Origin: an uncultured virus (IMG/VR IMGVR_UViG_3300021387_003647)
Lineage: Duplodnaviria; Heunggongvirae; Uroviricota; Caudoviricetes
DNA: 27,453 nt
Virus record (IMG/VR): IMGVR_UViG_3300021387_003647
Strand: one strand, 5' to 3'
Of this stretch, positions 2 to 27,453 are shown in pieces; positions within the stretch are counted from its first letter, which is position 1; each line of letters starts with the position of its first letter. Under the pieces are notes generated by a model, which had not been told where the DNA came from, made no database searches, and saw only the letters and a list, made by a program, of their open reading frames with translations. The position numbers and the translations under genes were made by a program.

Positions 2-439
2 GGACCATTCGAACAAATACCACATAATCATCTTCGTGGTCATGGATGTTCTCGTTGCCGTTCTTTGCAATCAAAGATATTGTTGACAGTATTAAATGCA
101 TTAGAAGAAAACAATATATCGTATTCTGTAGAAAAGATATTCGATTGGCTGAAAGACAAGAGTTATTTGAAACTTGATGTATATCTTCCTGATTACAATA
201 TTGCTATTGAATGTTAGGGTTATCAACATTTTAGTCCAATACCGATGTACGATAAAGACAATGATAACTTCGAGAAACGAACAAGAAGAGACAAAATAAA
301 ATATGAGTTATGCAAAGAGCATAATATTCCCGTATTATATTATGCAGAGAAAGAATATGTTTCAGATTACTTTGATAAGATATATACAGATGTCAATGAG
401 ATAATTGAATATATTTTAAATACAAAAGAGCACTCTTAA
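2..439 (+). CDS. 5'-truncated Vsr/DUF559-like (homing-type) endonuclease with Zn-ribbon; in-frame TAG at 215-217 read through
   Basis: Frame from base 2 reads GPFEQIPHNHLRGHGCSRC...LKLDVYLPDYNIAIEC(TAG)GYQHF, then continues into ORF 245..439. The D-x-YLP...IAIE-x-QG-x-QH and R..RDKIK...C motifs are typical of Vsr-like phage endonucleases. Confidence 0.8.
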
Positions 440-452
440 CTAGAGTGCTCTT
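426..452. terminator. Hairpin between convergent genes (probable bidirectional terminator)
   Basis: AAGAGCACTCT-TAACT-AGAGTGCTCTT, a perfect 11-bp stem. Confidence 0.7.
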
Positions 453-454
453 CC

Positions 455-1018
455 TTATCCGCCATACAACACGAGCATATCTTTATCGAAGTCGAATGTT
501 CGGTAGACGAAGATGAGATTGAAGATGGTGTACTCCCAATAATCAGAATTGCTCACTTTATATTCTTCGTCTGGCTTTACTGCAAAATTATACTTCCATT
601 CGAAACGTTTGTGACGTATATACTCTTTCAGATTAAACAGATGCAAGTCATCCGGAGTGACATCGTTCGTATCGATGCCGTTGTCTTTCATCTCCTGAAC
701 ATCCGGAGCAGCATACAACTCTTCGAGCCACTTCGTGACTTCTTCTTCGTACTTGTCGATGAACAGGCGGAGTCCGGCTTTCGTCACACGATAGAAGTCT
801 TCGCCCGTCTCCGGGTTTATCAACTGCTCGAACAGTTCGGGATTCTCCTTCTGCTCCCGACTGATATGCTCTTTCCAGACAGCCGTCCCCTCGTTGTTCA
901 GAATCTCCTTGCCGTTAATATACGGACGTTCCTCTTCACCGGTCTCGTCATCACGTACTTTCTCCCAGACAACTGGCTCTTTCTTGTCAGCCTTATAGAA
1001 TGAAACTCTCCAACTCAT
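455..1018 (-). CDS. Hypothetical phage protein
   Basis: Likely start is MSWRVSF at 1018, forming an ATGA overlap with the stop of the upstream gene. TAA stop. Confidence 0.75.
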   Translation of the reverse strand: MSWRVSFYKADKKEPVVWEKVRDDETGEEERPYINGKEILNNEGTAVWKEHISREQKENPELFEQLINPETGEDFYRVTKAGLRLFIDKYEEEVTKWLEELYAAPDVQEMKDNGIDTNDVTPDDLHLFNLKEYIRHKRFEWKYNFAVKPDEEYKVSNSDYWEYTIFNLIFVYRTFDFDKDMLVLYGG

Positions 1019-1614
1019 GGTCTTTTGTAAATTAAACATTGACAATAGTAACTTTTATCAGCCCAATCATCATCGCCGATGGCTTTCTCGATAGCCGCGA
1101 ATATATCATCGATAGAATTCACGGCATAGTACGTGGGCTTCTTGGCATAGGGCTTCTTCGGGTCACGGCATTCCAGGAATACCTTGTTCGTAGCGAAGTC
1201 AATCTTGTGAATATCAACTTTCTCATAGACATCCTGACTCTCTGGAAACTTCCTGGTCGGGTCATAGCATACGTATTTCTCTACTTCAAGCAATGGAGCG
1301 GTCTGAAAGAGCCATTGCGTTCCCAGATTCTCACGAAAACGATGAATACGGTACGTTTGATAGTCTTGTTGGAAGCACCGATGCTGTTCGGGAGTAATCT
1401 TGCCGCGTTCCAGCAGAATGTCGAAATCACCCTTATTATGCAGTCCGTATAGACTGTGACCGTGATTACGGGTCAAACTGACAATATCTTCGTCAGTCTG
1501 GACTTTCCTGACTCTCTTCAGATGTTTCTTGTTATCTTCATCGAATGCCTTCTGAATATTGTCCTGATACTGCCGCATCACTTCTTCGTATTTCTTCTTT
1601 TTCTCTTCGGTCAT
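1015..1614 (-). CDS. Hypothetical protein
   Basis: 199-aa ORF in a co-oriented operon with natural composition. Confidence 0.75.
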   Translation of the reverse strand: MTEEKKKKYEEVMRQYQDNIQKAFDEDNKKHLKRVRKVQTDEDIVSLTRNHGHSLYGLHNKGDFDILLERGKITPEQHRCFQQDYQTYRIHRFRENLGTQWLFQTAPLLEVEKYVCYDPTRKFPESQDVYEKVDIHKIDFATNKVFLECRDPKKPYAKKPTYYAVNSIDDIFAAIEKAIGDDDWADKSYYCQCLIYKRP

Positions 1615-1626
1615 AACTCTATTAAT

Positions 1627-2358
1627 TTAAATAAAACCTTCAAATATATTCATATCGTGCATGTCGAAATGCTTAATGACCGAGATTGCTTCCGGCGGGA
1701 TATTGTCGGCAGTGAATATCCCGAACGGGATGAAGTTCTGGTCGTACATCAAATTCGTGTCATTGCGCAACTTTGACACATCAATGCGATAATACGTGTA
1801 CTCATAATCGTTGACGTACTCATCATCCCGCTTCGGCAGGACAATCGTAAACAATTTCTCTATAATGTCCAGCAGCATTGAATCATCCATCTCTGCATAT
1901 CCGTCATCAGTGTGGGTATTATCCAGGAACAGATATATCCGGTCTGGATAGGAGAACATCCGGTTCTTACTCTTCGGGACAAGTCCCTGCTTCAGAATCT
2001 TGTGCTCGTACTTCGTCGGAGAGATATGATACAGACACTTCTGGGTCTTAATCAGCGCATTCTTAATCGGCTTCTGGAATTTCGGCTCGTAATGCTTTAC
2101 TTTCCACACGACATCATTGCATCCATCGACTATCTTCTCTTCGTTGTTCAGCACCGGGAAATATCCGAAGGCAGACATCGCACGGTCGATGATTGCTTCG
2201 TTCTCCTTGATATCCGGGAACGAAATATAGAAATAACTCTCGTTATCTGGAGTCTGCACTATCTGTACGTTCTCCGACTTCAACGGGAAATACTTCAGTA
2301 TCTGCGACCTGGCATTTCTCGGTGTTTCGTGAAGCCGCTTCAACCAGTTCGGTGCCAT
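1627..2358 (-). CDS. ADP-ribosyltransferase-fold (Tpt1/KptA-like) domain protein; probably the C-terminal part of a frameshifted gene starting at 2705
   Basis: LYHISPTKYEHKILKQGLVP...DRIYLF...NIPPEAI resembles YH-x-T/S...I...GL-x-P NAD-binding ART motifs. The frame is open upstream to 2412 with no ATG. Confidence 0.55.
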   Translation of the reverse strand: MAPNWLKRLHETPRNARSQILKYFPLKSENVQIVQTPDNESYFYISFPDIKENEAIIDRAMSAFGYFPVLNNEEKIVDGCNDVVWKVKHYEPKFQKPIKNALIKTQKCLYHISPTKYEHKILKQGLVPKSKNRMFSYPDRIYLFLDNTHTDDGYAEMDDSMLLDIIEKLFTIVLPKRDDEYVNDYEYTYYRIDVSKLRNDTNLMYDQNFIPFGIFTADNIPPEAISVIKHFDMHDMNIFEGFI

Positions 2359-2393
2359 CAGTGCCTTGAAGAGTTTCTTGTTCTCTGGATTCG

Positions 2394-2705
2394 TCAGGAT
2401 TTCTTCACCTTCTCAGCATCATAACTGCGGATAAGTCCTTCAGTCACCGATCTGAGATTCGTGTCTCTCAACATCAGGGCACAGTATGGCTTGAATCCGT
2501 TCTTCATCACTAGCGACAACGGACAGTTGAAACTGGCCATAACATCCAGGTGCCGGTAGTCAACTTCCATCTTCTTGAGTTCGTCTTCGGTGAAGTGACT
2601 CAAGGAAAACTTGTAGTTGACCGGCATTATTCCGGATTCCGTCAGTGACTTACTATAGTCGATGCCGACGAACCCGAAGTCCGGTATTTCTTCAAAGTAA
2701 CCCAT
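2394..2705 (-). CDS. Hypothetical protein (N-terminal part of a probably frameshifted gene)
   Basis: MGYFEEIPDF...EGLIRSYDAEKVKKS*. The ATG at 2705 lies just after the stop of 2716..2958. Confidence 0.6.
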   Translation of the reverse strand: MGYFEEIPDFGFVGIDYSKSLTESGIMPVNYKFSLSHFTEDELKKMEVDYRHLDVMASFNCPLSLVMKNGFKPYCALMLRDTNLRSVTEGLIRSYDAEKVKKS

Positions 2706-2715
2706 AACATATTGT

Positions 2716-2958
2716 TTAAATCTTCTTCTCCATTTCCTTGATTGAAAGTTCTTTAGCGTACTTGGTGAACAACTCCACCAGAATATCACGAGCAGTGTTC
2801 GCTCCGGTGATGAATACATTATACAACTCAGCATATGCTTCATCGTATTCATCCTTTGGCATTATAGCTTTCACATCACTGAGACTTTTCTCAATGGCTT
2901 CGGCTGCTTTAGCCTTTACTTGCTCTTCGTACTTTGCGTACAGATCTTCTTTTGTCAT
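2716..2958 (-). CDS. Hypothetical protein
   Basis: 80-aa helical ORF in operon. Confidence 0.75.
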   Translation of the reverse strand: MTKEDLYAKYEEQVKAKAAEAIEKSLSDVKAIMPKDEYDEAYAELYNVFITGANTARDILVELFTKYAKELSIKEMEKKI

Positions 2959-3947: not shown

Positions 3948-3975
3948 AACTGTTATGTTTTATAAATTCTGCAGG

Positions 3976-4045
3976 CAAAGGTACGAATAAAAACAATACG
4001 AAACAAGTTTTTCGGGAGAAATTTTCCGGGATTAACTTTCTTTAA
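3976..4045 (-). promoter_or_regulatory. Bacteroidota sigma-A-type promoter (-7 TACCTTTG) with upstream TTAA-N6-TTAA box
   Basis: CAAAGGTA at 3976-3983 is minus-strand TACCTTTG, matching the Bacteroides consensus TAnnTTTG. TTAA-N6-TTAA at 4032-4045. Confidence 0.65.
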
Positions 4046-4139: not shown

Positions 4140-4334
4140 ATGAAGAAAACATTGCATCAACTATTATGCTACTGCAACGGAAAGTTCTGTGCATTGAGAA
4201 ACAAATGCCGCCGGCATCGTGAGTCAACAACATCCAGTGGACTGTCTGCACCCGACTCGTCCATCATCGACCATTGTGATCCAGAACACCGAAGTTTGTT
4301 CCTGGATTGCGACGAATGCAGTGATGACTGTTAA
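4140..4334 (+). CDS. Small Cys-rich hypothetical protein
   Basis: 64 aa, CYCNGKFCALRNKCRRH, downstream of a promoter motif. Confidence 0.6.
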   Translation: MKKTLHQLLCYCNGKFCALRNKCRRHRESTTSSGLSAPDSSIIDHCDPEHRSLFLDCDECSDDC

Positions 4335-4391
4335 AGAAACTTAAAGTTTCGGACAAAGTCATTGCCGGTTGAAAAATTCTTCGTATATTTG
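4331..4391 (+). promoter_or_regulatory. Bacteroidota-type promoter (TATATTTG) with TTAA-N6-TTAA box
   Basis: TTAAAGAAACTTAA at 4331-4344 and TATATTTG at 4384-4391. Confidence 0.65.
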
Positions 4392-4454
4392 CGGCAGAAA
4401 ACGCGAGAACAGTGTGACTGTCCTTGCAATGTGAAATTAAAACATTAAGCAATT

Positions 4455-7254: not shown

Positions 7255-7722
7255 ATGCAAATAACAAGTCCGTGTCTAATAGACACATTCAAAGATGAGT
7301 ATCATCTGAACGAACAACAAGACGAATCTCTTGATGAAGCAAGAGATATGATGAAGTATAAGCCGCTTAAACAACCGGCTGTAAATACTACATAGACTAG
7401 AGAACTAAGTCAGCGAGAAGCGGATCGTATTCTTTTTTATGACCATTATAACAAATGGTAGGAAGAGACGTGTTTCTTCTCTTTTGATTATTTAAAAGAA
7501 AGAAACGAACATTACAAAGCTATTTTGAAAATGGGAAAGAGAGCCGTGCCGTTTTTGTATGAAATGCTATTAAACAACGAAAAATATGCAATCGGTATAT
7601 TAGAACAAATTTACGGATGTACTTTTAGTAAAGGTGCTAATAATATCAGAGAAGCACGAATAATTGCTTTAGAAGCAAAAGAAAAATGGATTAAGAAAAT
7701 AGAAGAGGAGGAAGGTATATGA
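7255..7722 (+). CDS. Hypothetical protein, 155 aa, with two in-frame TAG codons (7393, 7459)
   Basis: The ATG at 7255 follows promoter motifs and is in frame with ORF 7525..7722. Only TAGs interrupt it (KW*EETCFFS...HYKAILKMGKRAVPFL). Confidence 0.75.
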
Positions 7723-8237
7723 TATTACCAGAATCTTATTACAACACATTCCCGAATTTGTCTCAAGATGCAGTTGTTGTCGAACCGCCCGATATACATT
7801 ATAATTGTATAGCGTATTCTATTAATTGTACGAAATTATTTATACAACCGATAGAAAAACGTTTTCGACCGGTAAAATATAATCTAGACGGAACCATTGA
7901 CTTCTGGCCGACAGAATTAGAATGTAGTTGGGAACTGAGCAATATATTGAAATTTTATCGTATGTTCAAATATGAATTACACGAGAATGACAATTATACG
8001 ATGAAGTTTAGAAAGATTGCGTTATTCTGTAACCCGAATACGAATGATGTTACACATGCTGCTTTACAAATCGGTCCGAATATATGGAGAAGCAAACTCG
8101 GACCCGCTACATTACTTCAACATCAGTTATATGATATTGAAGGAGAGATATACGGAGAAGTTCGCTGTTTCATTAGAAGGCCGAGAACTATCACTAAAGA
8201 ATACGACTTCGAAGTATTAGAAAGATATTTGAAATAA
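7719..8237 (+). CDS. Putative papain-like/Cys-His fold protein (DUF7689-like)
   Basis: Motifs YNCIAYS, THAA and WRSKLG. ATGA-coupled to the upstream gene. Confidence 0.55.
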   Translation: MILPESYYNTFPNLSQDAVVVEPPDIHYNCIAYSINCTKLFIQPIEKRFRPVKYNLDGTIDFWPTELECSWELSNILKFYRMFKYELHENDNYTMKFRKIALFCNPNTNDVTHAALQIGPNIWRSKLGPATLLQHQLYDIEGEIYGEVRCFIRRPRTITKEYDFEVLERYLK

Positions 8238-8242
8238 AAAGA

Positions 8243-8268
8243 AGAGCACTCTCAAACGGGAGTGCTCT
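8243..8268 (+). terminator. Hairpin after 7719..8237
   Basis: AGAGCACTC...GAGTGCTCT, the same stem sequence as the hairpin at 426-452. Confidence 0.55.
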
Positions 8269-8385
8269 AAGCAATGCTTTACCCGCTGACTAAAGCATAG
8301 TTTACTGGTTGACTAAACTATGCTTTAGTGAGTCACTAAACTATGCTTTACCGAGGCACTAAACTATGCTTTAGTCGAGCACTAA
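8266..8385. repeat. 23-bp period tandem array, ~5 units, core CTAAA-CTATGC-TTTA(G), with the core inverted in one unit
   Basis: ACTAAACTATGCTTTA at 8312, 8335 and 8358; ACTAAAGCATAGTTTA at 8289; degenerate units at 8266 and 8381. Confidence 0.9.
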
Positions 8386-8467
8386 GATATACCTTGCATT
8401 TTAGCAAATTCAAAAATCGTTGAATTCACCATAGATAAATAAGGAAATTAACAACTATTATACGCCT

Positions 8468-9037: not shown

Positions 9038-9056
9038 CTCCTTATTAGAAACGCAT

Positions 9057-9091: not shown

Positions 9092-9093
9092 AG

Positions 9094-9164: not shown

Positions 9165-9197
9165 CAAGCAGAAATATAAATTTAAATTTTTGAGACA

Positions 9198-9418: not shown

Positions 9419-10117
9419 ATGAATTGGATGAGAATTTATCCTTTTTACAAAGGAAAGAACATTGCGAAAGACCCAGAGGGTTACGATTCAGCATTTGCTG
9501 CCGTCAGACATATGGATGACGATGAGTTAATAAAAGATTTCGAGAATACTCTTCCCGAAGACTTTGAGTATAATCAACTGTATGTTTATCAGGCAGATGA
9601 GAAAGATACAGAGAAAAGAAGTGGTAAATTGCTTATCAATTATTACACTGAAGTAGATACTTCTCAAGATACTAGTTCTGGAGTATGCTTATTTGATTTG
9701 TTTTCTGGAGAACATTATAATCCAGGGAAAATGCTTATAAAAACACCAGAAGATCACAAGAAAGATTTGGTCGTTCATTTTAGGCGTGAAGATTTCGAAA
9801 AGCGAGTAGTATTCTTAAAAAATGTTAAGAACAAACATCTGAAAGAATTGTTAGATGAATTAGTTCAAATAGAAAAGACAGATGTTTCAGAATTGCCACC
9901 GGAAGAACAGCAGCATTGCATTGCTGTATATGAAGAAATAGATGCTCTTGGGTATCATCCCGTAATACAAGAAAGTATAGATGAATATCGCAGATTGTTG
10001 AATAAGTATATCCGCGAGAATGTTGAGTTCCGTAAGATTCACAAAGACTATTACGAAGTGATTCCGTTGGAGAAAAAGCCGAAGCCGGAGTATCAAAAGA
10101 GCAACGAATTGTTCTAA
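9419..10117 (+). CDS. Hypothetical protein
   Basis: 232-aa ORF. Confidence 0.75.
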   Translation: MNWMRIYPFYKGKNIAKDPEGYDSAFAAVRHMDDDELIKDFENTLPEDFEYNQLYVYQADEKDTEKRSGKLLINYYTEVDTSQDTSSGVCLFDLFSGEHYNPGKMLIKTPEDHKKDLVVHFRREDFEKRVVFLKNVKNKHLKELLDELVQIEKTDVSELPPEEQQHCIAVYEEIDALGYHPVIQESIDEYRRLLNKYIRENVEFRKIHKDYYEVIPLEKKPKPEYQKSNELF

Positions 10118-10738: not shown

Positions 10739-10942
10739 ATGACAATAGCAAAGCGTATAGAACAATTAAAAGTGATTCGTTATCTACCAAACATAGATAA
10801 CAATAGTGCAGAATGGGGTTATGAGAACGCTTTAGATGATATATTAGAGTTGTTTCAAGATGAATTATCAGATGAAGCAAAACAGAATCCTTCAGTTAGA
10901 CGATTATATCAAATGATATACGACATTAAAGATCAAGAATAA
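10739..10942 (+). CDS. Hypothetical protein, paralog of 9198..9410
   Basis: See paralog. TAATG overlap with prfB. Confidence 0.8.
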   Translation: MTIAKRIEQLKVIRYLPNIDNNSAEWGYENALDDILELFQDELSDEAKQNPSVRRLYQMIYDIKDQE

Positions 10943-12072
10943 TGGTTTCAAAAGAGCAGATAAACGATTTGGTCGGCAGACTGGACATTCTCCGCGGGAA
11001 GGTGGGGATTGACGAGAAGAAGATGGAGTTGCAGGAACTCCGTCTGAGACAGCAGGACCCGGAGTTCTGGAATAATCCCGAAGCGGCAGTAGAGCATTCG
11101 AAGAAAGTTTCTGCTGCTGAGAAGTTCATTGACGGATTCCGGGAAGTGGAAGACCTGGTGACAGAGTGTGAACTAAGTATCGATGACGAGTCGGTGACAG
11201 AAGAGGCAATGGACAATCTCTATGCACTGACCGAGAAGCAACTGAGCGACTACGAACTGTATAATATGTTCGCAAACACAGAAGACTCGATGTCGTGTGT
11301 CATCCAACTGACTGCCGGAGCCGGAGGTACGGAAGCACAGGACTGGTGTAAGATGCTGACCAGGATGTACATCCTATACTGTAAGAGTCACGAGTTTGAA
11401 GTGGATGTCACCGACGACCAGGAAGGTGCCGTGACCGGACTGAAGTCGGCAACACTACTCGTCACGGGAAAGAATGCTTACGGACTGTTGAAGTGCGAGA
11501 CCGGCATTCACCGGCTGGTGCGGGTGTCTCCGTTCAATGCGCAGGGCAAGCGAATGACTTCGTTCGCCAGTGTGTTCGTGAGTCCGGTAGTGGACGACAC
11601 GATAGAAGTGGTCATCGACAAGTCCCATCTGGATGAAGAGCTCTTCAAGCGCAGCAGTGGTGCCGGCGGTCAGAACAACAACAAGGTATCGACGGCTTGT
11701 CGTCTGAAGTATGACTACGTGAATCCGGAGACCGGTGAGACTGAACAGATTATCGTAGAGAACCACGAGACCCGTAAGCAGCACGATAACCGCGAACGGG
11801 CGATGACTATCCTGAAGTCGATTATCTATAAGAAGGAACTGGACTATCGCAACCGTCAGAAACAGAAGGACGAAGACTCGAAGGACGACATCGGATGGGG
11901 AGCACAAATCCGTTCGTATGTGTTCGATGACTCACGGGTGAAAGATCATCGTACCGGCTACCAGGAGAGTGATGTCCAGAAAGTGATGGACGGCAACCTG
12001 GACGGTTTCATCAAAGCATATCTAATGAGTAAATTTAAAGACTATGACAGCAGACACGAAGTATTACAGTGA
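10942..12072 (+). CDS. prfB: Peptide chain release factor 2 (phage-encoded, no programmed frameshift)
   Basis: GAGGTEAQDW, E.GIHRLVRVSPF (SPF is the RF2 specificity tripeptide), GAGGQ and WGAQIRSYVF, in a continuous 376-aa ORF. Confidence 0.97.
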   Translation: MVSKEQINDLVGRLDILRGKVGIDEKKMELQELRLRQQDPEFWNNPEAAVEHSKKVSAAEKFIDGFREVEDLVTECELSIDDESVTEEAMDNLYALTEKQLSDYELYNMFANTEDSMSCVIQLTAGAGGTEAQDWCKMLTRMYILYCKSHEFEVDVTDDQEGAVTGLKSATLLVTGKNAYGLLKCETGIHRLVRVSPFNAQGKRMTSFASVFVSPVVDDTIEVVIDKSHLDEELFKRSSGAGGQNNNKVSTACRLKYDYVNPETGETEQIIVENHETRKQHDNRERAMTILKSIIYKKELDYRNRQKQKDEDSKDDIGWGAQIRSYVFDDSRVKDHRTGYQESDVQKVMDGNLDGFIKAYLMSKFKDYDSRHEVLQ

Positions 12073-13093: not shown

Positions 13094-13135
13094 AATGCGT
13101 AATAGTACTTAATTTTTTACTCATATGAAAATGTT

Positions 13136-13168
13136 GAATGCCGACTCATTGAGAGCCGGCATTCTTTT
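13136..13168. terminator. Hairpin between convergent genes
   Basis: GAATGCCG...CGGCATTC followed by TTTT. Confidence 0.6.
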
Positions 13169-13973
13169 ATGCTTTAAGACGGTTACGTTCCTGATGGATT
13201 TCACTGACTGTTGCTTGAATCGTCTGATACATCTCATTCTGGAGTTGTTGGTAGTCTTCACGAGAGTCATCATACTTCAACATATAGACCCGAGTGAGAT
13301 AGTCACAGAGTTTCTTCGTTGACTCGCTCTGATTCTTACTGCCGTCAACGATACTGTCTATCGTAAACAGCAATGTATCAGGGTTGTACACTTCATAACA
13401 CAACTGGACTAGTTCAGAACGACTGAATTTCGGATGCCGGAACTTATCATCGGCATTGACTGGAGAGTGCTGTAAAGCAACCAGGATAAGTTCGTTCTTG
13501 AAGAAAGAAGTGTCCCGTTGTTTGAAGTCTGTCATCAGTTTGTTCATGACAGCAAACATCCGGATATAACGTTTGATGTTTGTAGTGTCCAACGGTTCAA
13601 AGCAAATCATAAACGTAATCACCTCAGTATCATAGTCGTATGTGATATAGGTATTGGGAATTCCCGATACTGTATCTTCATACTTCGTATCAGCGAAACA
13701 GACCGCTTCAGAACTGCGCAGTCCGCAATAGTCACCGATACGTTTCATTTTCTTGAGTACGAATTCAATGTCCGGTCGCAACATCGACATATCTTTCTCT
13801 TCTGCGTATATGCCCATAAACACGATACTGAAAGAATTTCCGAACACTTGCGACTGTGTCTTCTCGAACGTAGGGCAATCTACGTTGGCATTGTCCTCAG
13901 TGCTCACCTCACTGGCAGCATTGCTGTTCTCGGCTACTGCCGCCTCACTTAACATTTTGTCTATTATATTCAT
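13167..13973 (-). CDS. Hypothetical protein
   Basis: 268-aa ORF. Confidence 0.75.
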   Translation of the reverse strand: MNIIDKMLSEAAVAENSNAASEVSTEDNANVDCPTFEKTQSQVFGNSFSIVFMGIYAEEKDMSMLRPDIEFVLKKMKRIGDYCGLRSSEAVCFADTKYEDTVSGIPNTYITYDYDTEVITFMICFEPLDTTNIKRYIRMFAVMNKLMTDFKQRDTSFFKNELILVALQHSPVNADDKFRHPKFSRSELVQLCYEVYNPDTLLFTIDSIVDGSKNQSESTKKLCDYLTRVYMLKYDDSREDYQQLQNEMYQTIQATVSEIHQERNRLKA

Positions 13974-14731: not shown

Positions 14732-14941
14732 TTAGCGAAGATTTCGAGTTTCAGCGGGAGCTTGAAGTGTATCGATTTTAAAGTAATCACATCTCGAATC
14801 AAACATATTATGTTGAGCAGTGTCTCTCGGTAACAATGTATTTCCGCGAGCTTGCTGATGCGTATTCGGATATACATGACTGTAATAATACACATCACCG
14901 ATAACATCACAAGATGAGTTATGTCTTCTTTCTATTCTCAT
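14732..14941 (-). CDS. Short protein ending LQAPAETRNLR
   Basis: Member of the four-ORF array with a shared C-terminus. Confidence 0.7.
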   Translation of the reverse strand: MRIERRHNSSCDVIGDVYYYSHVYPNTHQQARGNTLLPRDTAQHNMFDSRCDYFKIDTLQAPAETRNLR

Positions 14942-14942
14942 A

Positions 14943-15197
14943 TCACCTCATATTCCTGGTTTGTTCGTAAGCATTCGTGTAACTGGGAGAGCATTGAACC
15001 AGCATCAGCCGGGTATATTCGTTATCGAACTTTCCATCAAGCCCTTCGATATTAAGAGAAAACAGACTGCCGTCGCGTTCCAATTCAAACTGTGCCACAG
15101 TATCGTTCCAGTCTTCATATTTCCGACCAGTCACATCACTGTAATGCACACGATGTCCGTGCTGTATTCTTGGATAATTCTTATTAAATTCTCTCAT
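14943..15197 (-). CDS. Short protein ending NAYEQTRNMR
   Basis: Array member, ATGA coupling. Confidence 0.75.
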   Translation of the reverse strand: MREFNKNYPRIQHGHRVHYSDVTGRKYEDWNDTVAQFELERDGSLFSLNIEGLDGKFDNEYTRLMLVQCSPSYTNAYEQTRNMR

Positions 15198-15428
15198 CGT
15201 ATATTCCTGGTTTCAGCTGCTGCTTGGAATGTTTCACTAGTAATCCATTCTCCCATATGGTCAAATCCTCTATGTGTACGTTTGTCTCTTGAATCATTGA
15301 TGTTTACAACTGCTTGTTGGACAGTAGAAGTATAAGCTAAATATGTTGTATATACTTCACTATAATTCATATACGGTCTTAATGGTTTAATTATCTTCAT
15401 CGCATATTCCTGGTTTGTTCGTAAGCAT
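14949..15428. repeat. 26-bp direct repeat CATATTCCTGGTTTGTTCGTAAGCAT at 14949-14974 and 15403-15428 (partial copy 15201-15213)
   Basis: Exact match read from the sequence. Confidence 0.9.
15194..15400 (-). CDS. Short protein ending FQAAAETRNIR
   Basis: Array member, ATGA coupling. Confidence 0.75.
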   Translation of the reverse strand: MKIIKPLRPYMNYSEVYTTYLAYTSTVQQAVVNINDSRDKRTHRGFDHMGEWITSETFQAAAETRNIR

Positions 15429-15708
15429 CTACTTGGTTAGGAAGAATCTTCCGACCCATATCATCCTCGATGTCACAGCCAGTAGGAAAATTCTTACTGT
15501 ACCACATATCAAAATCATCATCAACGAAGTAGTCGCGGACGGACTGGTAGTTGTTTACGTAGTCGCGCTCATCATATTGGTCGCTATTCTCGTAAACATC
15601 CGGATTATACAACCCCTGTGTATAGTCCCACCAGTCGTCAGCATGAAACAGTTTCTGTTCATTCTGACACTCTCCGTCGCGCACACTTCTATCGTCAAAG
15701 TCTCTCAT
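15397..15708 (-). CDS. Short acidic protein ending DAYEQTRNMR
   Basis: Array member, TAATG coupling to the AAA+ gene. Confidence 0.75.
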   Translation of the reverse strand: MRDFDDRSVRDGECQNEQKLFHADDWWDYTQGLYNPDVYENSDQYDERDYVNNYQSVRDYFVDDDFDMWYSKNFPTGCDIEDDMGRKILPNQVDAYEQTRNMR

Positions 15709-18556: not shown

Positions 18557-18560
18557 ACTA

Positions 18561-18586
18561 ATATTACTACAGTTTCTGAAAAAAGT
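18561..18586 (-). promoter_or_regulatory. ACTT-N16-TAATAT promoter-like motif
   Basis: Closely similar to 26281-26306 (TAGACTTTTT...CTGTAGTAATAT). Confidence 0.6.
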
Positions 18587-18683
18587 CTATTTGAGGATTT
18601 TCCGTAAAGTTCCGAAGAGTATGAAACTGATGTAGAGATTTCATAAAATGTCTTTAGAAAACATACAAGAACAGACAGAATCG

Positions 18684-18754
18684 TTAAAAGAAGTTAAAGA
18701 ATGAAAGTTTTCTGCTGAAATATTTGCATGTTCCAGAAAGAATGCCTATATTTG
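18684..18754 (+). promoter_or_regulatory. Bacteroidota-type promoter (-33 TTTG, -7 TATATTTG) with TTAA-N6-TTAA box
   Basis: TTAAAAGAAGTTAA at 18684-18697, TTTG at ~18723, TATATTTG at 18747-18754. Confidence 0.7.
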
Positions 18755-18807
18755 CATCGTGAAACTTAAAAAAACTTTTATTGTTAAACTTAAAAAACTA
18801 ACGTATT

Positions 18808-19674: not shown

Positions 19675-19697
19675 ACGTTCCTGACACTTTCGGCAGA

Positions 19698-19735
19698 AAA
19701 GAAAAGCAGACCCGGTAGCGGGTCTGCTTTTCTTT
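19698..19735. terminator. Bidirectional intrinsic terminator
   Basis: AAAGAAAAGCAGACCCG-GTAG-CGGGTCTGCTTTTCTTT. Confidence 0.85.
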
Positions 19736-19811
19736 CGTATATCATTTATGGTAAGTTTGCTATATCTTTCTATACGATTTACTATACCAAATGAGGGTAT
19801 TTTACTATACC
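19733..19811. repeat. Degenerate 22-23-bp phased repeat TTT(A/G/C)(C/G)TATA(T/C)C x4
   Basis: Copies at 19733, 19756, 19778 and 19801. Confidence 0.55.
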
Positions 19812-21104
19812 TTAATATTCGTATTCTTCTTCATCGTCTTCATCGTACTCTTCTTCCCGTTCCCGATCGTCATACTCATCACGCTCGTGCTCGTAGTAAA
19901 TCTCTTCAGCACGTTCCAGTGACGGCAACACACAACTCAACGTAGCCGGACGGCTGATGACATTATTATTTTGTTCGTGACCTTCCGACTCCAGTGCCAG
20001 GATAAACTCCTTTCCTTTTGAGTCGCTGATTGTTCCGTGGAAGAACAGATGCACAGAAGTATAAACAGTCCCGCCATCGTCTTCGTGATTGATGATATAC
20101 GCTTCACCGGGAGTATTCTCCAGGAAGTCACGAATGTTCTGACTGCGTGTTGCTGTCGGATCCCAAGGTTCCAGACCACTGCCGTCCCTATATCCGCTGA
20201 CACTATAGTAAGTCAACAGTTCTGCACACGGAGTACCATTCCGTCCGGCCCAGTGGTTCTTGTCCTTCACCGGTCCGATGCGCTCGAAGTCACATACCTT
20301 GATGACTTTCTCCTTATTGTTCAAGTCATTCATAATGTCATAGTTCTCAGAGCCGTCATCATGCCCAAAGAACGCAAACGCAAGGATTGTGTCGATGTTC
20401 CACTGATGAGTGTCCTACATCACCTGACCGAATGTATAGTCCGGACTTATCAGCAGTTTACACATTCTCCACACTTTCTGTGAAATAGTCGGCCAGATAA
20501 TCTGCGGAACACCGTCAACAATATCAACACTATAGAATTCCACATAAGTATCTTCTCTTGATTTAGCATCCAACGAGTTAGACTTGTCTATTAATATGTT
20601 TGAATTTGAAGAAGTTCCGGCTTCTACTGTATTACAAGAAATGGTAAAGATTCGGTATATGAAATATTTCAAAAAGTTCAATACATTGTATGCATTATTG
20701 AAGTCTCCATTGAATGTGACTATACCGTATAATATTGTACTTACATCAGCATCGAATATATTATGTGCTTTCATCCCGACAATATCTACTCCATCCAAGT
20801 CATAATGCTTTAAGCAGTCTTCTTCGTGTCGTAATACATGTTGATATGCATTACTGTCATAAAATACTGGCTTACTGAAGTTGGTTATTTGCGGGCAACG
20901 ATTAAGCATAACTATCAATCTGCGTTGGAACCTCTATAAGTCATTCGTAAGACTAGCAATCGTATCGATATTGATATACTTATGCATCACAACATCAAAC
21001 TCCAACCGGTACTCATATTGTATCTCAGTGCCGTCAATATCATCCTGCAACTCTTCGTCGTCTATCTGGACATTATCCAGAAAATCTTCAAAAATCTTTT
21101 CCAT
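19812..21104 (-). CDS. Hypothetical protein, 430 aa, with two in-frame TAGs (20934-36, 20415-17); merges ORFs 20415..20918 and 19812..20333
   Basis: Continuous frame from MEKIFEDFLDNVQIDDEEL at 21104 to the TAA at 19812, interrupted only by TAG. Confidence 0.8.
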
Positions 21105-21119
21105 GCACTATTTATTGTA

Positions 21120-22600
21120 CTATTTTCATAAATTTATAAATTCTAATCAAATCTATAGATTATACTACTAATTTCGTGCTCTGTCTGTTCTTCGGATTTA
21201 AAAATCCTCGAACATTTAGAACATCTGGTGATACAACGTCACCTCTATCCAGTAATCTGCTCAGAGCAGAATCCTGTATTACATTTGCTTTACGCAAGAT
21301 GCCGACTGCGCCGTTGCAGTCGGCGTTCAGCAACTTTCCAGTTGATGATTTAAACAATCCACGCTTAGTTCTCTTTCCGAGATAAGAATCGTGATGCTCC
21401 ATAGTCTCTTTGGCTAAGTGATCACACTTAGATGTGTAACTTTCTTCTACTTCTATGAATTCTATTCCAACTTCTTCGAGTTTATATTTCAACTTTGAAA
21501 TCAATTCTGAATGTGGAATTGAACAGAACAATCGATTGTTTGCTTTGAACATATTTGATTCATTCTTCCAGAATTCATTATGACCGATAACTACTCTACC
21601 TATAGCATTCTCTAAGCAATAATCTCTTATCATACTGCTTACATTATGAATATAGTTAAATTTATAGTTGTTATAGTTGAAGAAAATTCTGTTCATTCTC
21701 CTTGATAGTTTCACTTGTTTTAATAGCCCATCTTTTCGAGAAACTTTAGTCAGTTCTCTGTTCTTCGAAGTCAATACACAAGATGTCAAATGAGCAATTG
21801 AATCATTTGTCTCGTTGATTCTTTGTTTCAGTTCGCTGCCGCGAACTATGAAAGAATCTTCTTTGTCTAATCCGAACGTCACACAAGTTATTAGATTTTT
21901 GACACCTAGGTCAATGCCCAATGCTTTATCTTTCAAAACAACTATCTTCGGCTTAACTTTATTTTCTCTTAACTCATCAAGATATTTCAGATTCTAATCA
22001 TATATGAACGTAATTTTGAATTTACTTTCATTTATGAATTTGATTTTAAGCATTACAATCCATTCTTTCTTCAGATTAGACGGAATCCGAACTTTATAGT
22101 CAGAACACGGCAGTGTTATCTTATCTTTTTCTTTTCCTCTGAATCGTGTCTTATCTATCGAGACTATATTATGTGTTTTCTTTCTGTATTTGTATTTTGG
22201 CATCTAAGGTTCACCCGTGTATCTCTCCGGGTGAACTCTGTAGTCTTTCTTTGCTTTAATCCAACTAAACCAATTGCTATATGCTTGTCCGATACATTGT
22301 TTCTTTACATTAATGTCTAATTTAGAATTCTGAAATGCATCAGTCGAGTTAACTAAGTCAAACAAATTAAACTTTGACGGATATTTCGGAATTTCTTCCC
22401 AGTTCAAATCTCTACATCTGAAGTATTCTTGACGAAGGAAATACAGTCCCTAATCATAGAGTGAAACAGAATCAACGGTCATACTGTTTAACCGTTCATC
22501 ATAGTCAACGAACGTATGGACAGCACGAAGGAACTGATTATTCTTTCTCATAAATTATTTATCACAAAGTTCTTATATAGTTGAATTATCATATTTTATT
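21120..22600 (-). mobile_element. TnpB-only (IS1341-like) element; ends approximate
   Basis: AT-rich island carrying only tnpB. No tnpA in the window. Confidence 0.5.
21160..22551 (-). CDS. tnpB: IS200/IS605-family TnpB RNA-guided endonuclease, 463 aa, with three in-frame TAGs (22450, 22204, 21994)
   Basis: LYD(TAG)GLYFLRQEYF (family LYNQxLY), YTGEP(TAG)MPKY, ALGIDLGVKNL, VEESYTSK, KRGLF and NADCNGA.GILRK. Three ORF-track fragments are in one frame. Confidence 0.9.
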
Positions 22601-22653
22601 TACTAACTTAAATACATTCTAAACTTTCTCGGAGTTCTGAAGTATAATAGTTG

Positions 22654-24006
22654 ATGGGATATTACATTGACATATCATATGATGAGCAACTGAAGAGTGC
22701 TGTGCAACTTTGGGATGAAGGATTCGTGAACGATTCTATCCTGGAGTTAAGTCGGCTTGTGTATGATGACGACTATCTGCCGGCTTATCCGGAATATCTC
22801 CGTAGGATTTGGGGAAATGGTCAGCATTACGATGAGTTCAATGAGTTGCTGGAACGCGGCATCGGGAAAGGTTCACTCGACTGTGAGTATCTGAAAGTGT
22901 GGAAGGAATTTTCCAACCGGCCCAGTGTTGATGAGTATTGGAACCGTATCGGTACGCTGGCACGGAAAGGACAGAAGAACGCCCGTCTTGCACTAGCGAT
23001 GCGTTACCTGCAGTTCCAGCAGTACGAAATGACACTGAAATGTATGAACGATGCTTATCCGTGTATGTCGTCGGTAGAGAATCTTGCACTGATGTATCCG
23101 TACTTCAAGTCACGCGAGTCTTTCTTCCGGAAGATTATCCCGAATTGTCAGCGATGGGTGCGTCGAGTAGAGGGTTATATCCGGCAACACGATTCATCGT
23201 TTGCTGCATCAGATGGAGTTATTACAACTCCACTTGAGTCCATCCGCTTACAGCCGTGGCCGGTGAACACCGATAAGTTGTTGATGCACGAGATTTCGAA
23301 TGAAGAGTTCAATGCCCACGTATTCAGCCGGTTGAGAATGCTGGAACGGAAGAGAATCCAGCAGGGAACGGCTCTGAGTTATTCGCAGATAGTGGACGAA
23401 CTGGTTCATAAGTTGCGAGCATTCCCGGACTTGTATATTATGACTGGACTGACGAAGAATTCGTGGAGTCTCTCCGACAACGAGAAAGACTCAGCAAAGG
23501 AACGCAGCAGCATCTACGTGATGAAACATACAGACCAGGGTTGGATGACATTGCGTATAGGAGACCATACACCCAATATGCAAGACTATTACAAATACCG
23601 CCGGATGTTCATTCCGTCAATAGAGCGTTATGCGAATATGTGTCTGATGTTCCATGGCGACCGTGAACAGGATAAGCAGCTCAGTTACTCGTTCCGGTTC
23701 CGTCCGGAGACTGCCGACCCGTGTGTGACAGTCCGCGATGAAGACTTCGTTATCTACCGGCCGTTTATGTATATGCTCGTGCATTATATTCCCGGCCTTA
23801 TTGAAAACATAGACCCATTAGTAGAGAATATCCGTAAGTGGTTTGACGGCGAGGGAAAGAATCCTTATCAAGACCCGTGGTGGCAAACGAGTGAGAACGG
23901 GCCGTGTGCTCGGACTACCAGCGGGTGTGTGACTATCGAGACGTGGAAGATGAAGTACGACCGACGGGAAAGGAAACGTCAGTCCAGTGATTCTTCTATC
24001 TTGTGA
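22654..24006 (+). CDS. Hypothetical protein with Sel1/TPR-like helical N-terminus
   Basis: ~450 aa with LARKGQKNARLALAMRY. ACTT-N16-TATAAT at 22623-22648 lies immediately upstream. Confidence 0.75.
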   Translation: MGYYIDISYDEQLKSAVQLWDEGFVNDSILELSRLVYDDDYLPAYPEYLRRIWGNGQHYDEFNELLERGIGKGSLDCEYLKVWKEFSNRPSVDEYWNRIGTLARKGQKNARLALAMRYLQFQQYEMTLKCMNDAYPCMSSVENLALMYPYFKSRESFFRKIIPNCQRWVRRVEGYIRQHDSSFAASDGVITTPLESIRLQPWPVNTDKLLMHEISNEEFNAHVFSRLRMLERKRIQQGTALSYSQIVDELVHKLRAFPDLYIMTGLTKNSWSLSDNEKDSAKERSSIYVMKHTDQGWMTLRIGDHTPNMQDYYKYRRMFIPSIERYANMCLMFHGDREQDKQLSYSFRFRPETADPCVTVRDEDFVIYRPFMYMLVHYIPGLIENIDPLVENIRKWFDGEGKNPYQDPWWQTSENGPCARTTSGCVTIETWKMKYDRRERKRQSSDSSIL

Positions 24007-24041
24007 ATTAACTTTAAGCAATATCCAATTTACTAGTTGAG

Positions 24042-24217
24042 TGCTTTCGGGCCGTCCCGTCTTCCAGAACGGGAGATGAGGGATTCCCGAACGGGATGTA
24101 ATTACCTGCCGAACGGGAGGTGAAATGCTATCGAACGATGACAGAAAACAAAACGTTCGATAAACGACTTCAACACGAACGTTTAATGACTGACTCCCGA
24201 ACGTTGGGCGAATGCTT
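24042..24217. repeat. 22-bp phased array of CGAACG cores (one inverted); possible structured RNA
   Basis: GAAC at 24067, 24089, 24111, 24133, 24177 and 24199; GTTC at 24155. Confidence 0.75.
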
Positions 24218-24336
24218 ACCGTGAGCAAAGCGAAATCACTGCTGGTCTCTCGATTTTTTATTTCCGTACGGAAAAAAACTTTTTCGCCAGTGCGTAGGTA
24301 TAATTATTAGAAGATAATTTAAAGAAAGGAAAGCAT

Positions 24337-24672
24337 ATGAATAATGAACAACAAACAATGAGTAATGTCCGTGTAGAGTTAGACATTCCCGGACAGAGGT
24401 TGCTGGCTCAAGCAATGGATGTATTCGACAACTATCAGCCGCTGGTAAAGGAAGCATTGGAAGAGGCTCGTGAGAAACTGCTATTTGATAAAGACTTTCA
24501 GCAGCATATCAAGGATGTGATTATCGCTCGTGTAGAAGAAGCGATGAAGAAAGGTATAGAACAGGCTGCGAAGCGAGTGATTGACGATGCATACTATCAC
24601 CACTATACGGAAATTGAAAAATCGGTCAGAGATACTATCATCTCGAAACTGACAAACAATGCGACCGTTTAA
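24337..24672 (+). CDS. Hypothetical helical protein
   Basis: 111 aa with an AAGGA upstream and a promoter motif at 24278-24304. Confidence 0.75.
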   Translation: MNNEQQTMSNVRVELDIPGQRLLAQAMDVFDNYQPLVKEALEEAREKLLFDKDFQQHIKDVIIARVEEAMKKGIEQAAKRVIDDAYYHHYTEIEKSVRDTIISKLTNNATV

Positions 24673-24704
24673 TTGATTTTGCCCAATACATGTAAAATAA
24701 AATT

Positions 24705-24740
24705 GAAGAGCGAGCCGTTGGTGACTCGCTCTTCTTTTTT
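24705..24740 (+). terminator. Intrinsic terminator
   Basis: GAAGAGCGAG...CTCGCTCTTC followed by TTTTTT. Confidence 0.8.
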
Positions 24741-24755
24741 AGAATAATGAAAGTT

Positions 24756-24974
24756 TCAGAACAATGGGTTACTTGAATCGTTTTTATGCCGGTATTTCGA
24801 CATATCGACCAGTGTAACCACTTTCGTGTCTTTCTTAGGACTCCCGAAAGAGAACTTCGGAAACTTCAGCGGTTCTATTTCCTTGCCGCTTGGCGGACAG
24901 GCTCCGCAGATTTTGTGTTTCTTCGGACTCTTCTGGGGAATCTTCGGAGTGTTGTTGCCAAAGAAATCTAGCAT
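24756..24974 (-). CDS. Small basic hypothetical protein
   Basis: 72 aa, Lys/Pro-rich, ending at the terminator. Confidence 0.5.
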   Translation of the reverse strand: MLDFFGNNTPKIPQKSPKKHKICGACPPSGKEIEPLKFPKFSFGSPKKDTKVVTLVDMSKYRHKNDSSNPLF

Positions 24975-25020
24975 ACGTGTACAGTTTGATTGTTTTTGTA
25001 TTTATGTTCACCAGATGTTG

Positions 25021-25431
25021 TCAGATAAGCACAGCATCGGGGACATAAATTTTCTTCAGCACTTTGGGTGCATTCTTCTTCTGACCTTTTCCGAACGGCT
25101 GTACCAGGAACACGTAGTTGCCGTAGCCGGTAGGCAGTTTCTGCATACACACACCGCGATAACTCTCGCCGCGATAGTTGAACTTCACTACGGTCTTCGA
25201 CTCTTCGTTCTTGATGTCACACTCGCACTTCAGGAATGTGTCTGACATCTGAGTCACCTTGTACTCACCGTTGTCAACGAATTCAGATTCATCGTCCAAC
25301 GGCATAAAACCGGCCGACTCTTCCTCGTCAGAAGATTTATGACGGCTGTCGTCAGAATAATACACTTCATCTGTTATCTCATCATTCTCATCGAAATTGA
25401 TGTTCTCGTTAATGTTTTGATTTTCTAGCAT
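25021..25431 (-). CDS. Hypothetical protein with acidic N-terminus
   Basis: 136-aa ORF. Confidence 0.75.
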   Translation of the reverse strand: MLENQNINENINFDENDEITDEVYYSDDSRHKSSDEEESAGFMPLDDESEFVDNGEYKVTQMSDTFLKCECDIKNEESKTVVKFNYRGESYRGVCMQKLPTGYGNYVFLVQPFGKGQKKNAPKVLKKIYVPDAVLI

Positions 25432-25470
25432 GATTATAAAATATTTAGTTATTAATTTTAAATAGCGGAG

Positions 25471-26253
25471 TTATTTATCATACTCCGGAATTGCGAAATA
25501 GTCAGTTAGTCGGATTCCCTGCTCGTAGGCATTCTCCGTAGCATAGTCAATCTTGTCGTTCAACTCGTCGCGGATGTCAGAAGCCATCTGTTTCTTGTCA
25601 GCCTGGATGACGATGGGAGTTGTACTTACGTATGTATTTACAAGTTGGGGATTTATCACGGCTTTATAGAGCGGACCGTCGGCCACCCAGAACTTCTTGT
25701 TCATAAATGCCAGGTAATATTCCATACCCTTGCGTGACAGTGCATACATCGAACAGTTCCAGAGTCCAACACCAGAATGCTGCACCCAGAAGAAGTTCTT
25801 TTTAGTATATTCCTGTATTCGCTTGTCAACGGTGAATGCTCCGAACTGACAGATGTCATAATCTTCGGGCATTACGTTCAGGCAATCATATATATATTCA
25901 GTATCCCGTAAAAATAGTACGTCATCCTCTATTACCAGACAGTGTTCGCATCCCAAGTCATAACAAGTCTTGACAATTGCATAATGATTGCGAGCACAGT
26001 CATACTCATTGACTTTCGTAAACTTTCCGCGACCCGTCTGGTTGAAGGCATTCATAATGACATCGTTATGCGGGAACGGTGTAGCGAAGTAATAACGGAA
26101 ATAATTACTTCCAGTATCGGGCAGTTCAAGACCCATCTCACTGAACTGGTATTCTATCAGGTCTCGCCGGTCTTTTCGACTGGTAAGGTTCAACACGTAG
26201 GTACGGTCGAACTTCTCTTCGAACTTTTTCTGTAACTTTGATTTTTTATCCAT
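25471..26253 (-). CDS. Glycosyltransferase family 25-like protein
   Basis: YVLNL..RKDRR, CARNHY, LVIEDDV and Y.LSRKG motifs of GT25 (Lex2/Lgt). Confidence 0.8.
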   Translation of the reverse strand: MDKKSKLQKKFEEKFDRTYVLNLTSRKDRRDLIEYQFSEMGLELPDTGSNYFRYYFATPFPHNDVIMNAFNQTGRGKFTKVNEYDCARNHYAIVKTCYDLGCEHCLVIEDDVLFLRDTEYIYDCLNVMPEDYDICQFGAFTVDKRIQEYTKKNFFWVQHSGVGLWNCSMYALSRKGMEYYLAFMNKKFWVADGPLYKAVINPQLVNTYVSTTPIVIQADKKQMASDIRDELNDKIDYATENAYEQGIRLTDYFAIPEYDK

Positions 26254-26333
26254 TGCTGTAGTAATTTAATGTTTATGTATATATTACTACAGTCAACAGA
26301 AAAAGTCTAACGTACGGAAATATTTTCCGGAAA

Positions 26334-27453
26334 TCAACTCTCCTGGATGGTGTTTCGCTGTGTCTCTATGCTACGAGCCTGTTCGTTATACTGGTTGTAG
26401 TTCTTGATGGCTTGTTCCAGTCCGGTGGGAAGATTTCCCTGATTGGCCAGTGACACACTGGTCCAGAACTTCTTCTGGATTTCTTTCTCGGTGCCGAAGT
26501 GATAGTGCTTCGTAGATACTCCGCTGTCGTCCTTGGTCTGTTCGATACAGCAGGCCACACCGTTGCTAATCATTGCCTGGAGCACATTGCTGTTCGATAA
26601 CACATAATCGGTCATAATCGACTTGAAGTCCTGACCGTCGCCGTTGATGATGTCGAAAGCTTCACCGTACAGATGCCGGGAATTATTCGTAGCGAAATAC
26701 ATAATCTCACCCTTAGCATTCGAGCATTTGTAAAGACCGCCTTTCTGTACGAAAGCGTTTCCATCTACACGGTTACCTTTCTCATCAACAGCCCACCGAC
26801 GTGCTGACACAAGTTTAATGCCCGGACATTCCTGCTTCAACACACGGTAAATTTGTTTCAGTCCGTCTTTCAGTCCAGTCAACGGCACTTCATCCTGTGT
26901 AGCATCATCCGGTGCTACATTGACTGGTGTTGATGCACTCTCGTTCGCTCCCTACTCTTCGGGATTCTCTGTATCTGCTGTGGGTGTGTTGCCTTCTCCG
27001 CCAGTAGTATTCTCAGGATTCTGTCCGGCTGTATCAACAGTTGTCTCGTTCAGTATCTCTTCATCTTCTTTCAGCACCACCCCATTGCGTCCGGGAATAG
27101 GCCACTCACGGCGCACTAGTTTGCAACAGGTTGTCCAACGGGTGTTGCCGTGCTCTGCTTCGTTGCGGTCCCACTTCCACATAATACTGTCGATGACGAA
27201 CCATCCGCTACCGCTCTCGTAGAGCATTCGTTGTGCACGGGTGCCGGGGAACGACTGTGTGGGCGCGATAGAGTTCAGTTTATCGTGATCCATTATCATC
27301 ATCGGAATCTTCTCACCACGCATAATCGCCAGGTTCAGTCCCATCAGGTCCACTTCTATATATTGCTTCTGCAACTGCAGGTTGTTGCGCATGTTATGTT
27401 CCCAACCGGCTTCATAGAAACGGTTTACGTTACCGTTGGCCTGACTGTTGCCG
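26334..27453 (-). CDS. 5'-truncated virion (baseplate hub/tail-like) protein with C-terminal M15-type peptidase; in-frame TAG at 26952-26954
   Basis: ORFs 26952..27392 and 26334..26888 are in one frame, joined by a TAG inside a T/P/E/N-rich linker. SRHLYGEAFDI and HYHF match the M15 SxHxxGxAxD/HxH Zn ligands. The frame is open to the window edge. Confidence 0.7.

Follow-up and report, generated by a model that had tools for sequence, protein, structure and literature searches.

A stretch of a very large animal-gut phage genome in which TAG probably reads as glutamine

Does TAG still end genes in the DNA of the uncultured virus recorded in IMG/VR as IMGVR_UViG_3300021387_003647 (Caudoviricetes), and, if it has become a sense codon, which amino acid does it specify and what kind of phage carries the change? 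The whole stretch analysed, 27,453 nt with a guanine plus cytosine (GC) content of 41.9%, is called the window here. The original prediction had claimed that nine in-frame TAGs join gene fragments of the window into full-length proteins, with TAG probably read as glutamine (Gln). A coordinate check found all nine correct, at 215, 7393 and 7459 on the plus strand and 20415, 20934, 21994, 22204, 22450 and 26952 on the minus strand (CTA on the plus strand), and five genes were restored, which are full-length and colinear with their homologs solely when TAG is read through. Judging from sequence comparison, the window is very probably part of a very large animal-gut phage genome in which TAG specifies Gln (NCBI translation table 15) and TAA and TGA are the sole terminators.

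Stop-codon use was examined over 44 open reading frame (ORF) models, which ended in TAA (25) or TGA (19) and never in TAG, bearing out the claim that no credible gene ends in TAG. The models were drawn from ORF lists, and they include four doubtful small ORFs overlapping larger ones (2716..2958, 4264..4452, 13125..13322 and 24236..24457) and the 5' portion of a frameshifted gene (2394..2852). Because they were chosen partly with TAG as sense, the count was redone mechanically by greedy selection of the longest ORFs under the standard code (code 11). This gave 43 ORFs, 25 ending in TAA, 13 in TGA and five in TAG, and the five (2..217, 20415..20918, 21994..22203, 22204..22407 and 26952..27452) are all fragments of the homology-supported split genes. 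TAG is not rare in the window, as it makes up 19.9% of the stop trinucleotides in six frames; at this share the probability that none of the 44 models ends in TAG is 5.8e-5, the probability that nine of nine internal stops are TAG is 4.8e-7, and the 38 non-TAG code-11 ORFs give 0.8^38, about 2e-4. As a codon TAG is sparse, occurring nine times beside 106 CAA and 190 CAG (296 together). Three further in-frame TAGs in an unsupported 5' extension (8366..8467) were left out of the nine. Two AT-rich spacers, 8366-8467 (+) and 10093-10338 (-), hold three TAGs each and have one frame that is open if TAG is sense, and no coding evidence was found in them.

The nine TAGs would be ordinary stops if the virus used the standard code and the five TAG-bearing genes were pseudogenes or truly split genes. 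Two of the five encode an HNH nuclease and TnpB, selfish elements that often decay, and another window gene (1627..2705) is frameshift-broken relative to its 359-aa (amino acid) relatives. Decay of this kind is hard to square with internal stops that are TAG in every case and TAA or TGA in none (P ~5e-7), while no intact gene is TAG-ended.

The HNH/homing-endonuclease gene enters the window with its 3' part (2..439, +; phrog_559, E 1.7e-28), and its TAG at 215-217 is residue 72 of that part. The best 150 matches of a full HMMER scan supplied 72 homologs for the alignment, and at the TAG position 70 of them have Gln and two have histidine (His), in keeping with the earlier claim that the TAG of the motif IEC*GxQH falls on a family Gln. 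One public protein of 194 aa (P0124) ends just ahead of this TAG, its last 71 residues matching the window by eye, and another (P0145) is a 64-aa piece downstream of it with 100% identity; they are code-11 pieces of the HNH gene in the public protein collection.

By sequence criteria, the gene at 21160..22551 (-; 463 aa) is TnpB, an RNA-guided nuclease of the IS200/IS605 type, with 104.7 bits on NF040570 (cut-off 100) and both OrfB_IS605 and Cas12f1-like TNB domains. Its TAGs lie at 22450-22452 (residue 34), 22204-22206 (residue 116) and 21994-21996 (residue 186). In an alignment of 49 homologs, a subset of the 120 listed, residue 34 is Gln in 43, lysine (Lys) in five and His in one, and the claimed match of the motif LYD*GLY to a family Gln thus held as well. 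Residue 116 is Lys in 33, arginine (Arg) in eight, Gln in five, glutamate (Glu) in two and cysteine in one, and residue 186 is variable. In P0002, which at 89% identity is the closest TnpB homolog among the matches listed, each of the three sites is Gln. Three N-terminally truncated relatives begin at a methionine directly after the residue-116 TAG column, which suggests from the alignment that they carry the same stop as the second TAG of the window gene. In the public sequencing run X1, the summed contig depth was 68-111 over bins 20640-22640 versus about 11 on most flanks; the pieces listed end at 21141 and restart at 22592, so that the three TnpB TAG sites fall in the gap, and the TnpB stretch behaves in this run as expected of a repeat.

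The 155-aa protein (7255..7722, +) belongs to no Pfam or PHROG family and is colinear with 156-aa homologs at 62-65% identity. At its first TAG (7393-7395, residue 47) Gln is present in 10 of 10 close homologs, with aspartate (Asp) in five distant sequences of a wider alignment, and at its second (7459-7461, residue 69) the homologs have Arg in nine cases and Lys in one. No relatives of this family were found in the genome contig collection. About 40 N-terminal residues of the protein (CLIDTFKDEYHL...ESLDEARDMMKYKP; 7255-7380) are common to five proteins of 120-125 aa with unrelated C-terminal parts (P0276-P0280), which sit on contigs of up to 831,161 and 194,032 bp. There is no second copy of this part within the window, and it may, from its distribution, be a shared module of unknown role.

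The clearest view of TAG in exchange with another codon came from the 430-aa protein (19812..21104, -). It has no family, its relatives (441-447 aa) are colinear with it and 75-76% identical, and it holds TAGs at 20934-20936 (residue 57) and 20415-20417 (residue 230). DNA relatives in metagenome contigs were limited to two short loci, L017 and L018, and none were found in the viral contig collection. Residue 57 is TTA (leucine, Leu) in L017 alone, and residue 230 is AAA (Lys) in L017 and L018 and Lys in 14 of 14 homologs. Relatives hold TAGs of their own where other members have CAG or CAA. L017 and L018, which are 98% identical in this gene, differ at one codon as TAG/CAG and at another as CAG/TAG, with frames open to a common end, and this is what synonymous exchange of TAG and CAG looks like. 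All three C-terminally truncated members of the 90% cluster of this protein stop just ahead of columns that are Gln throughout (13/13, 13/13 and 15/15). Gln at conserved columns and reciprocal TAG/CAG in relatives whose frames run on to a shared TAA or TGA end both argue against pseudogenes or split genes under the standard code. The predicted structure of the 430-aa protein (predicted local distance difference test score, pLDDT, 34.2; alignment A4) was too poor for a structure search.

The last TAG lies in the 372-aa 3' part of a protein at the right edge of the window (26334..27452, -), which in a tblastn search of 50,697 phage records matched 15 records, all of them Lak. Lak phages infect Prevotella, are placed in a proposed order 'Grandevirales' and use code 15 (PMC6784885, PMC8346664, PMC11165621). 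The TAG at 26952-26954 is residue 167, within an acidic linker, and the Lak orthologs run unbroken through both conserved halves of the protein. Adjacent to it is a TAG-free gene (25471..26253, -) for a predicted family-25 glycosyltransferase (GT25; PF01755, E 8.7e-9), and the same search again returned 15 records, all Lak, at 55-56% identity. A LAS/M15-type peptidase, considered for the 372-aa protein from a motif (S-x-H-x2-G-x-A-x-D / H-x-H), had no Pfam or PDB support and was dropped. A PDB sequence search with this protein gave nothing below E 0.3, and the predicted structure of its C-terminal 190 aa (pLDDT 43.9) was too poor for a structure search.

Alignment of the TAG positions to homologs, a check proposed with the original prediction, thus placed Gln in conserved columns of the HNH protein, TnpB and the 155-aa protein (70/72, 43/49 and 10/10). 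Summed over the eight alignable TAG sites, the log-odds were 3.71 for Gln, -0.70 for Lys and -9.4 for Arg. TAG might still be a sense codon for some other residue, with Lys the next best, or be decoded ambiguously, and the homologs at TnpB residue 116 (Lys 33/49, Arg 8/49), residue 230 of the 430-aa protein (Lys 14/14) and residue 69 of the 155-aa protein (Arg 9, Lys 1) point that way. The two deepest conserved columns, however, are predominantly Gln (70/72 and 43/49 homologs), Gln leads Lys by 4.4 natural-log units, and the partner codon of TAG in the 98%-identical relatives is CAG, a single transition away. The TAG-recoded gut phages tested experimentally are all reported to read Gln (PMC9523058). 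We therefore consider another residue or ambiguous decoding quite unlikely.

The Gln reading is strengthened by a gene absent from the original prediction. The gene at 10942..12072 (+) encodes, to judge from its profile scores and motifs, peptide chain release factor 2 (RF2; prfB) of 376 aa with PCRF and RF-1 domains. It scores 385 bits on the TIGR00020 prfB model, above the curated cut-off of 370, and 198 and 183 bits on models of release factor 1 (RF1), under their cut-offs. Its translation holds GGQ (SGAGGQ) and SPF (RVSPFNAQ), the tripeptide that marks RF2 specificity. The gene ends in TGA, and neither it nor its operon has an in-frame TAG. It is 47% identical to Lak RF2, the best segment reaches 51-55% identity to Bacteroidales RF2 (80 kept loci), and the highest alignment identity to a bacterial RF2 is 56% over 361 columns. 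Nearly every alignment row listed follows one frame of the window RF2 from residue 1 to 362, which gives no hint of a +1 frameshift site. Its end branch, with only Bacteroidales sampled, has a length of 2.04 changes per site where the median is 0.03, and the Lak RF2 branch is very long too. RF2 reads UAA and UGA, not UAG, as set out for Lak RF2 in two reports (PMC6784885; bioRxiv 10.1101/2021.08.26.457843).

Two of the top RF2 matches are records labelled 'Bacteriophage sp.', and neither is a phage relative: the RF2 of L002 (MT836638.1) is 100% identical to that of Segatella copri and the RF2 of L001 (MT835889.1) is 80% identical to a Bacteroidaceae RF2. Neither record carries any other gene of the window, their genetic code is ambiguous, and both look bacterial. 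A search of the viral contig collection with RF2 peptide patterns returned no relatives. Two small paralogs on the plus strand, 9198-9410 (70 aa) and 10739-10942 (67 aa), are 47% identical and lie each directly upstream of a larger gene; the first precedes 9419..10117 and the second precedes RF2, its stop being overlapped by the RF2 ATG. On the other side, the gene at 12254-13093 (+) has two DUF1599 domains ('nucleotide modification associated domain 1', E 9.5e-55), and members at least 90% identical to it occur on 0.83-Mb contigs. Contigs of relatives in runs X3 and X13 are without 148 bases of the spacer between RF2 and this gene (window 12035-12184) and have 10 other letters instead.

Several observations weigh against TAG as Gln or against the phage setting. 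Neither ARAGORN at default settings nor Rfam (E up to 1) found a transfer RNA (tRNA) in the window. When introns were allowed and thresholds relaxed, ARAGORN gave low-confidence calls alone, the majority containing introns hundreds of bases long; CTA is read by none of the five calls at -ps90, and -ps80 produced a longer list. In a positive control the program detected two tRNA(cta) genes in Lak-C1, which would place the decoder in another part of the genome or outside it; the negative extends to the 27 kb of the window, in a genome that measures at least 346 kb. At five of the eight alignable sites the homologs carry Lys or Arg, Leu, or residues of the Asp/Glu type, and these sites hence show merely that some residue stands there. 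The residue-167 TAG of the 372-aa protein sits in a linker that could not be aligned. Pfam and PHROG scans found no capsid, portal or terminase gene in the window, so that the term phage rests on Lak affinity and ORFan content.

The original prediction had also proposed comparing coding density between codes 11 and 15. Run on the window, the comparison showed density rising from 88.1 to 91.1% over the models or from 85.2 to 89.3% in the greedy selection when TAG was taken as sense, but the gain is merely 3.0-4.1 points, which makes this a weak check here. It is under the thresholds of a recoding survey, given as more than 10% for contigs of 5-100 kb and more than 5% for those of at least 100 kb (bioRxiv 10.1101/2021.08.26.457843). 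A gain of merely 3-4 points would also be compatible with pseudogenes under the standard code. Set against the all-TAG internal stops, the Gln columns, the reciprocal TAG/CAG codons and the presence of an RF2 gene, that explanation appears very improbable to us.

Finally, the TAGs could be sequencing or assembly errors for CAG. For this no support was found at the TAG sites, and what there is on its side is one probable 1-base difference in an A-run of the window. Nine independent errors all yielding TAG would be implausible, and truncated code-11 calls of the same genes occur in the protein database. Logan contigs of run X1 are letter-identical to the window over 7329-21141 and 22592-27299, spanning five TAG sites, although this agreement is not independent since X1 may be the source sample. 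Errors at these sites can be set aside as improbable in the extreme. TAG as Gln is thus preferred on the alignment columns, the TAG/CAG exchange in relatives, the truncated relatives that stop before Gln columns and the RF2 gene.

Which phage, then, carries this code? The suggestion of a jumbo phage gained indirect support, since a recorded contig of 345,957 bp carries 13 proteins identical to window proteins (six of seven sequences in one lookup and seven of seven in another). For eight of 14 protein clusters examined, members at least 90% identical sit on contigs of 831,161 and/or 836,250 bp. No near-identical DNA was found among the 50,697 phage records, and an exact 43-mer had no relatives in the viral contig collection. 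Jug phages (27-30% GC, no alternative code) and phage BF3 (55% GC, code 11) were rejected as the lineage. No recoded lineage with about 42% GC or 0.83-Mb genomes was found in the literature, and the supplements of recoding surveys may already list it. We put forward tentatively, as a possibility that we lean somewhat against, that the window represents an undescribed TAG-recoded megaphage lineage of about 42% GC in animal-gut Prevotellaceae, loosely linked to Lak, with relatives on the 831,161- and 836,250-bp contigs, to which one protein is 95-97% identical and a further seven are identical at 90% or more.

Going by sequence affinities, the probable host is a Prevotellaceae-type bacterium of the Bacteroidales. 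Of the best 80 of 590 confirmed bacterial RF2 relatives, 60 bear the family label Prevotellaceae and eight Bacteroidaceae, with a few bins labelled otherwise; the scan was seeded with the window's own peptides and may be biased accordingly. The motif TAnnTTTGC, which we take to be the Bacteroidota -7 promoter element, has 11 matches against 3.77 expected, a number reached in none of 100 shuffles. Eight of the 11 are strictly intergenic (intergenic sequence makes up 9% of the window), and several stand ahead of TAG-free operons. Sites on the plus strand are 4384-4392 (inside the doubtful ORF 4264..4452), 9157-9165, 10174-10182, 14645-14653, 18747-18755 and 19752-19760, and those on the minus strand are 3975-3983, 10375-10383 and 14655-14663. 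The intergenic sites are candidate host-type promoter elements. A second motif, AGTANWAT, was rejected as a late promoter: its 18 matches against 9.8 expected, reached by one of 100 shuffles, precede some TAG-bearing and some TAG-free genes and are too weak. Parts of the window occur in public runs of 13 studies, for the most part metagenomes of the bovine gut; contigs of two such runs cover scattered parts at 90-99% identity, and an RNA run (X20) holds small pieces alone. The Bacteroidota host named in the original prediction is thus supported through inference, by the RF2 relatives, the TAnnTTTGC excess and the two genes shared solely with Prevotella-infecting Lak.

Most window proteins have no Pfam or PHROG family. 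For 12 such proteins Pfam at E up to 1 gave chance-level rows alone, and proteins of 427 and 451 aa had no match among the phage records. The gene at 1627-2705 (-) is split by a frameshift near 2397-2406 at an A-run (GAAGAAATCC). Compared with a 359-aa protein on the 831,161-bp contig (P0358), 2705..2400 is 95% identical over 102 aa and 2406..1630, in the other frame, is 97% identical over 259 aa; the two pieces have entries of their own from the 345,957-bp contig (P0360 and P0356). A true mutation, slippage or a fault of assembly could account for the break. Four small genes at 14732-15708 (-) look, from pairwise similarity, like a tandem duplication of a two-gene unit: 14732..14941 resembles 15194..15400 (40%) and 14943..15197 resembles 15397..15708 (36%). 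The upstream regions of 14732..14941 and 15194..15400 have the string ...gcttacgaacaaaccaggaatatg... in common.

How might such a code work? A Gln-charged suppressor tRNA with anticodon CUA would be encoded elsewhere in the genome, as in Lak. UAA and UGA could remain efficient stops thanks to the phage RF2, with the action of RF1 at UAG outcompeted or shut down, and TAG-bearing genes would then be completed solely once the suppressor was active. In this way TAG might serve as a lock for timing or containment, a role already suggested in other recoded phages. An unmodified host could read the RF2 operon and the majority of the genes here, which are free of TAG. The window offers a compact test bed in which a standard-code RF2 operon lies beside TAG-bearing genes.

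The GC content of about 42% and the heavy use of TGA do not fit the path of low GC first and recoding afterwards that was drawn from AT-rich clades. Recoding in regions like the window would escape the coding-density screens of surveys, and genes would consequently be split wrongly, with fragments already in the public protein collection. If the proposed lineage exists, a phage can stay TAG-recoded without low GC and exclusive use of TAA stops, the two features thought to come first, and its TnpB and HNH elements would be translatable solely in cells that the phage has already switched to the new code. The 0.83-Mb relatives, if they are real genomes, bear on the limits of phage genome size. 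In the literature consulted, the largest gut phage genome is 716.8 kb (PMC11662467, with genes called under code 11 only) and the overall record is 841.7 kb, held by BF3 from an oil reservoir (code 11, 55% GC; bioRxiv 10.1101/2025.01.14.633092); should the lineage be confirmed and each of those contigs be one genome, they would set the size record for gut phages and for recoded phages alike.

Three known systems are the closest. The RF2 genes of Bacteroidales (Prevotella, Segatella) resemble the window gene in being full-length prfB with SPF and GGQ and no sign of a +1 frameshift, but the window copy is highly diverged and lies among ORFan genes in a phage-like setting. Among recoded gut phages, TAG recoding is also described in crAss-like, Agate, Garnet, Topaz and other gut clades, RF2 is present in six TAG-recoded Lak and two Agate phages, a late-gene timing model was proposed, and recoding is tied to low GC and TAA-dominated stops (bioRxiv 10.1101/2021.08.26.457843); code-15 jumbo phages of rumen, pig and human gut carry RF2 as well (PMC13037316). 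These clades share with the window the same recoding, RF2 in Agate and some jumbo phages, a lack of recoded codons over most of the genome, and code-change genes that are themselves in standard code. The window differs from them in its GC of about 42%, its TGA ends (19 of 44 models) and a density gain under their thresholds.

The third system is the Lak phages. The earlier statement that code 15 is known in Lak and some crAss-like phages agrees with the available literature, in which Lak phages have code 15, tRNA-CUA, RF2 and large TAG-free regions (PMC6784885). The window resembles them in TAG as Gln, a phage RF2, patchy TAG with long TAG-free stretches and an animal-gut habitat, in the 372-aa and GT25 genes that are Lak-only among phage records, and in a TnpB relative (P0117) encoded in Lak_Megaphage_Sonny. 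The original prediction of a lineage distinct from Lak and more GC-rich was upheld, with 41.9% GC in the window against 25.8% measured for Lak-C1, which matches four of 44 window proteins at E up to 1e-3 (RF2 at 47%, GT25 at 56%, the 372-aa protein and one weak match). The 372-aa and GT25 genes are adjacent in the window and about 236 kb apart in Lak-C1, and the 27 kb of the window are without a tRNA. Published Lak genomes span 26-31% GC and 476-660 kb (PMC8346664, PMC11165621), ranges that leave out the GC of the window, its 345,957-bp contig and the relatives on contigs of 831,161 and 836,250 bp. By gene content and composition, the lineage is linked to Lak and is not Lak as currently defined; the mechanism of recoding is already known, and the lineage appears to be new.

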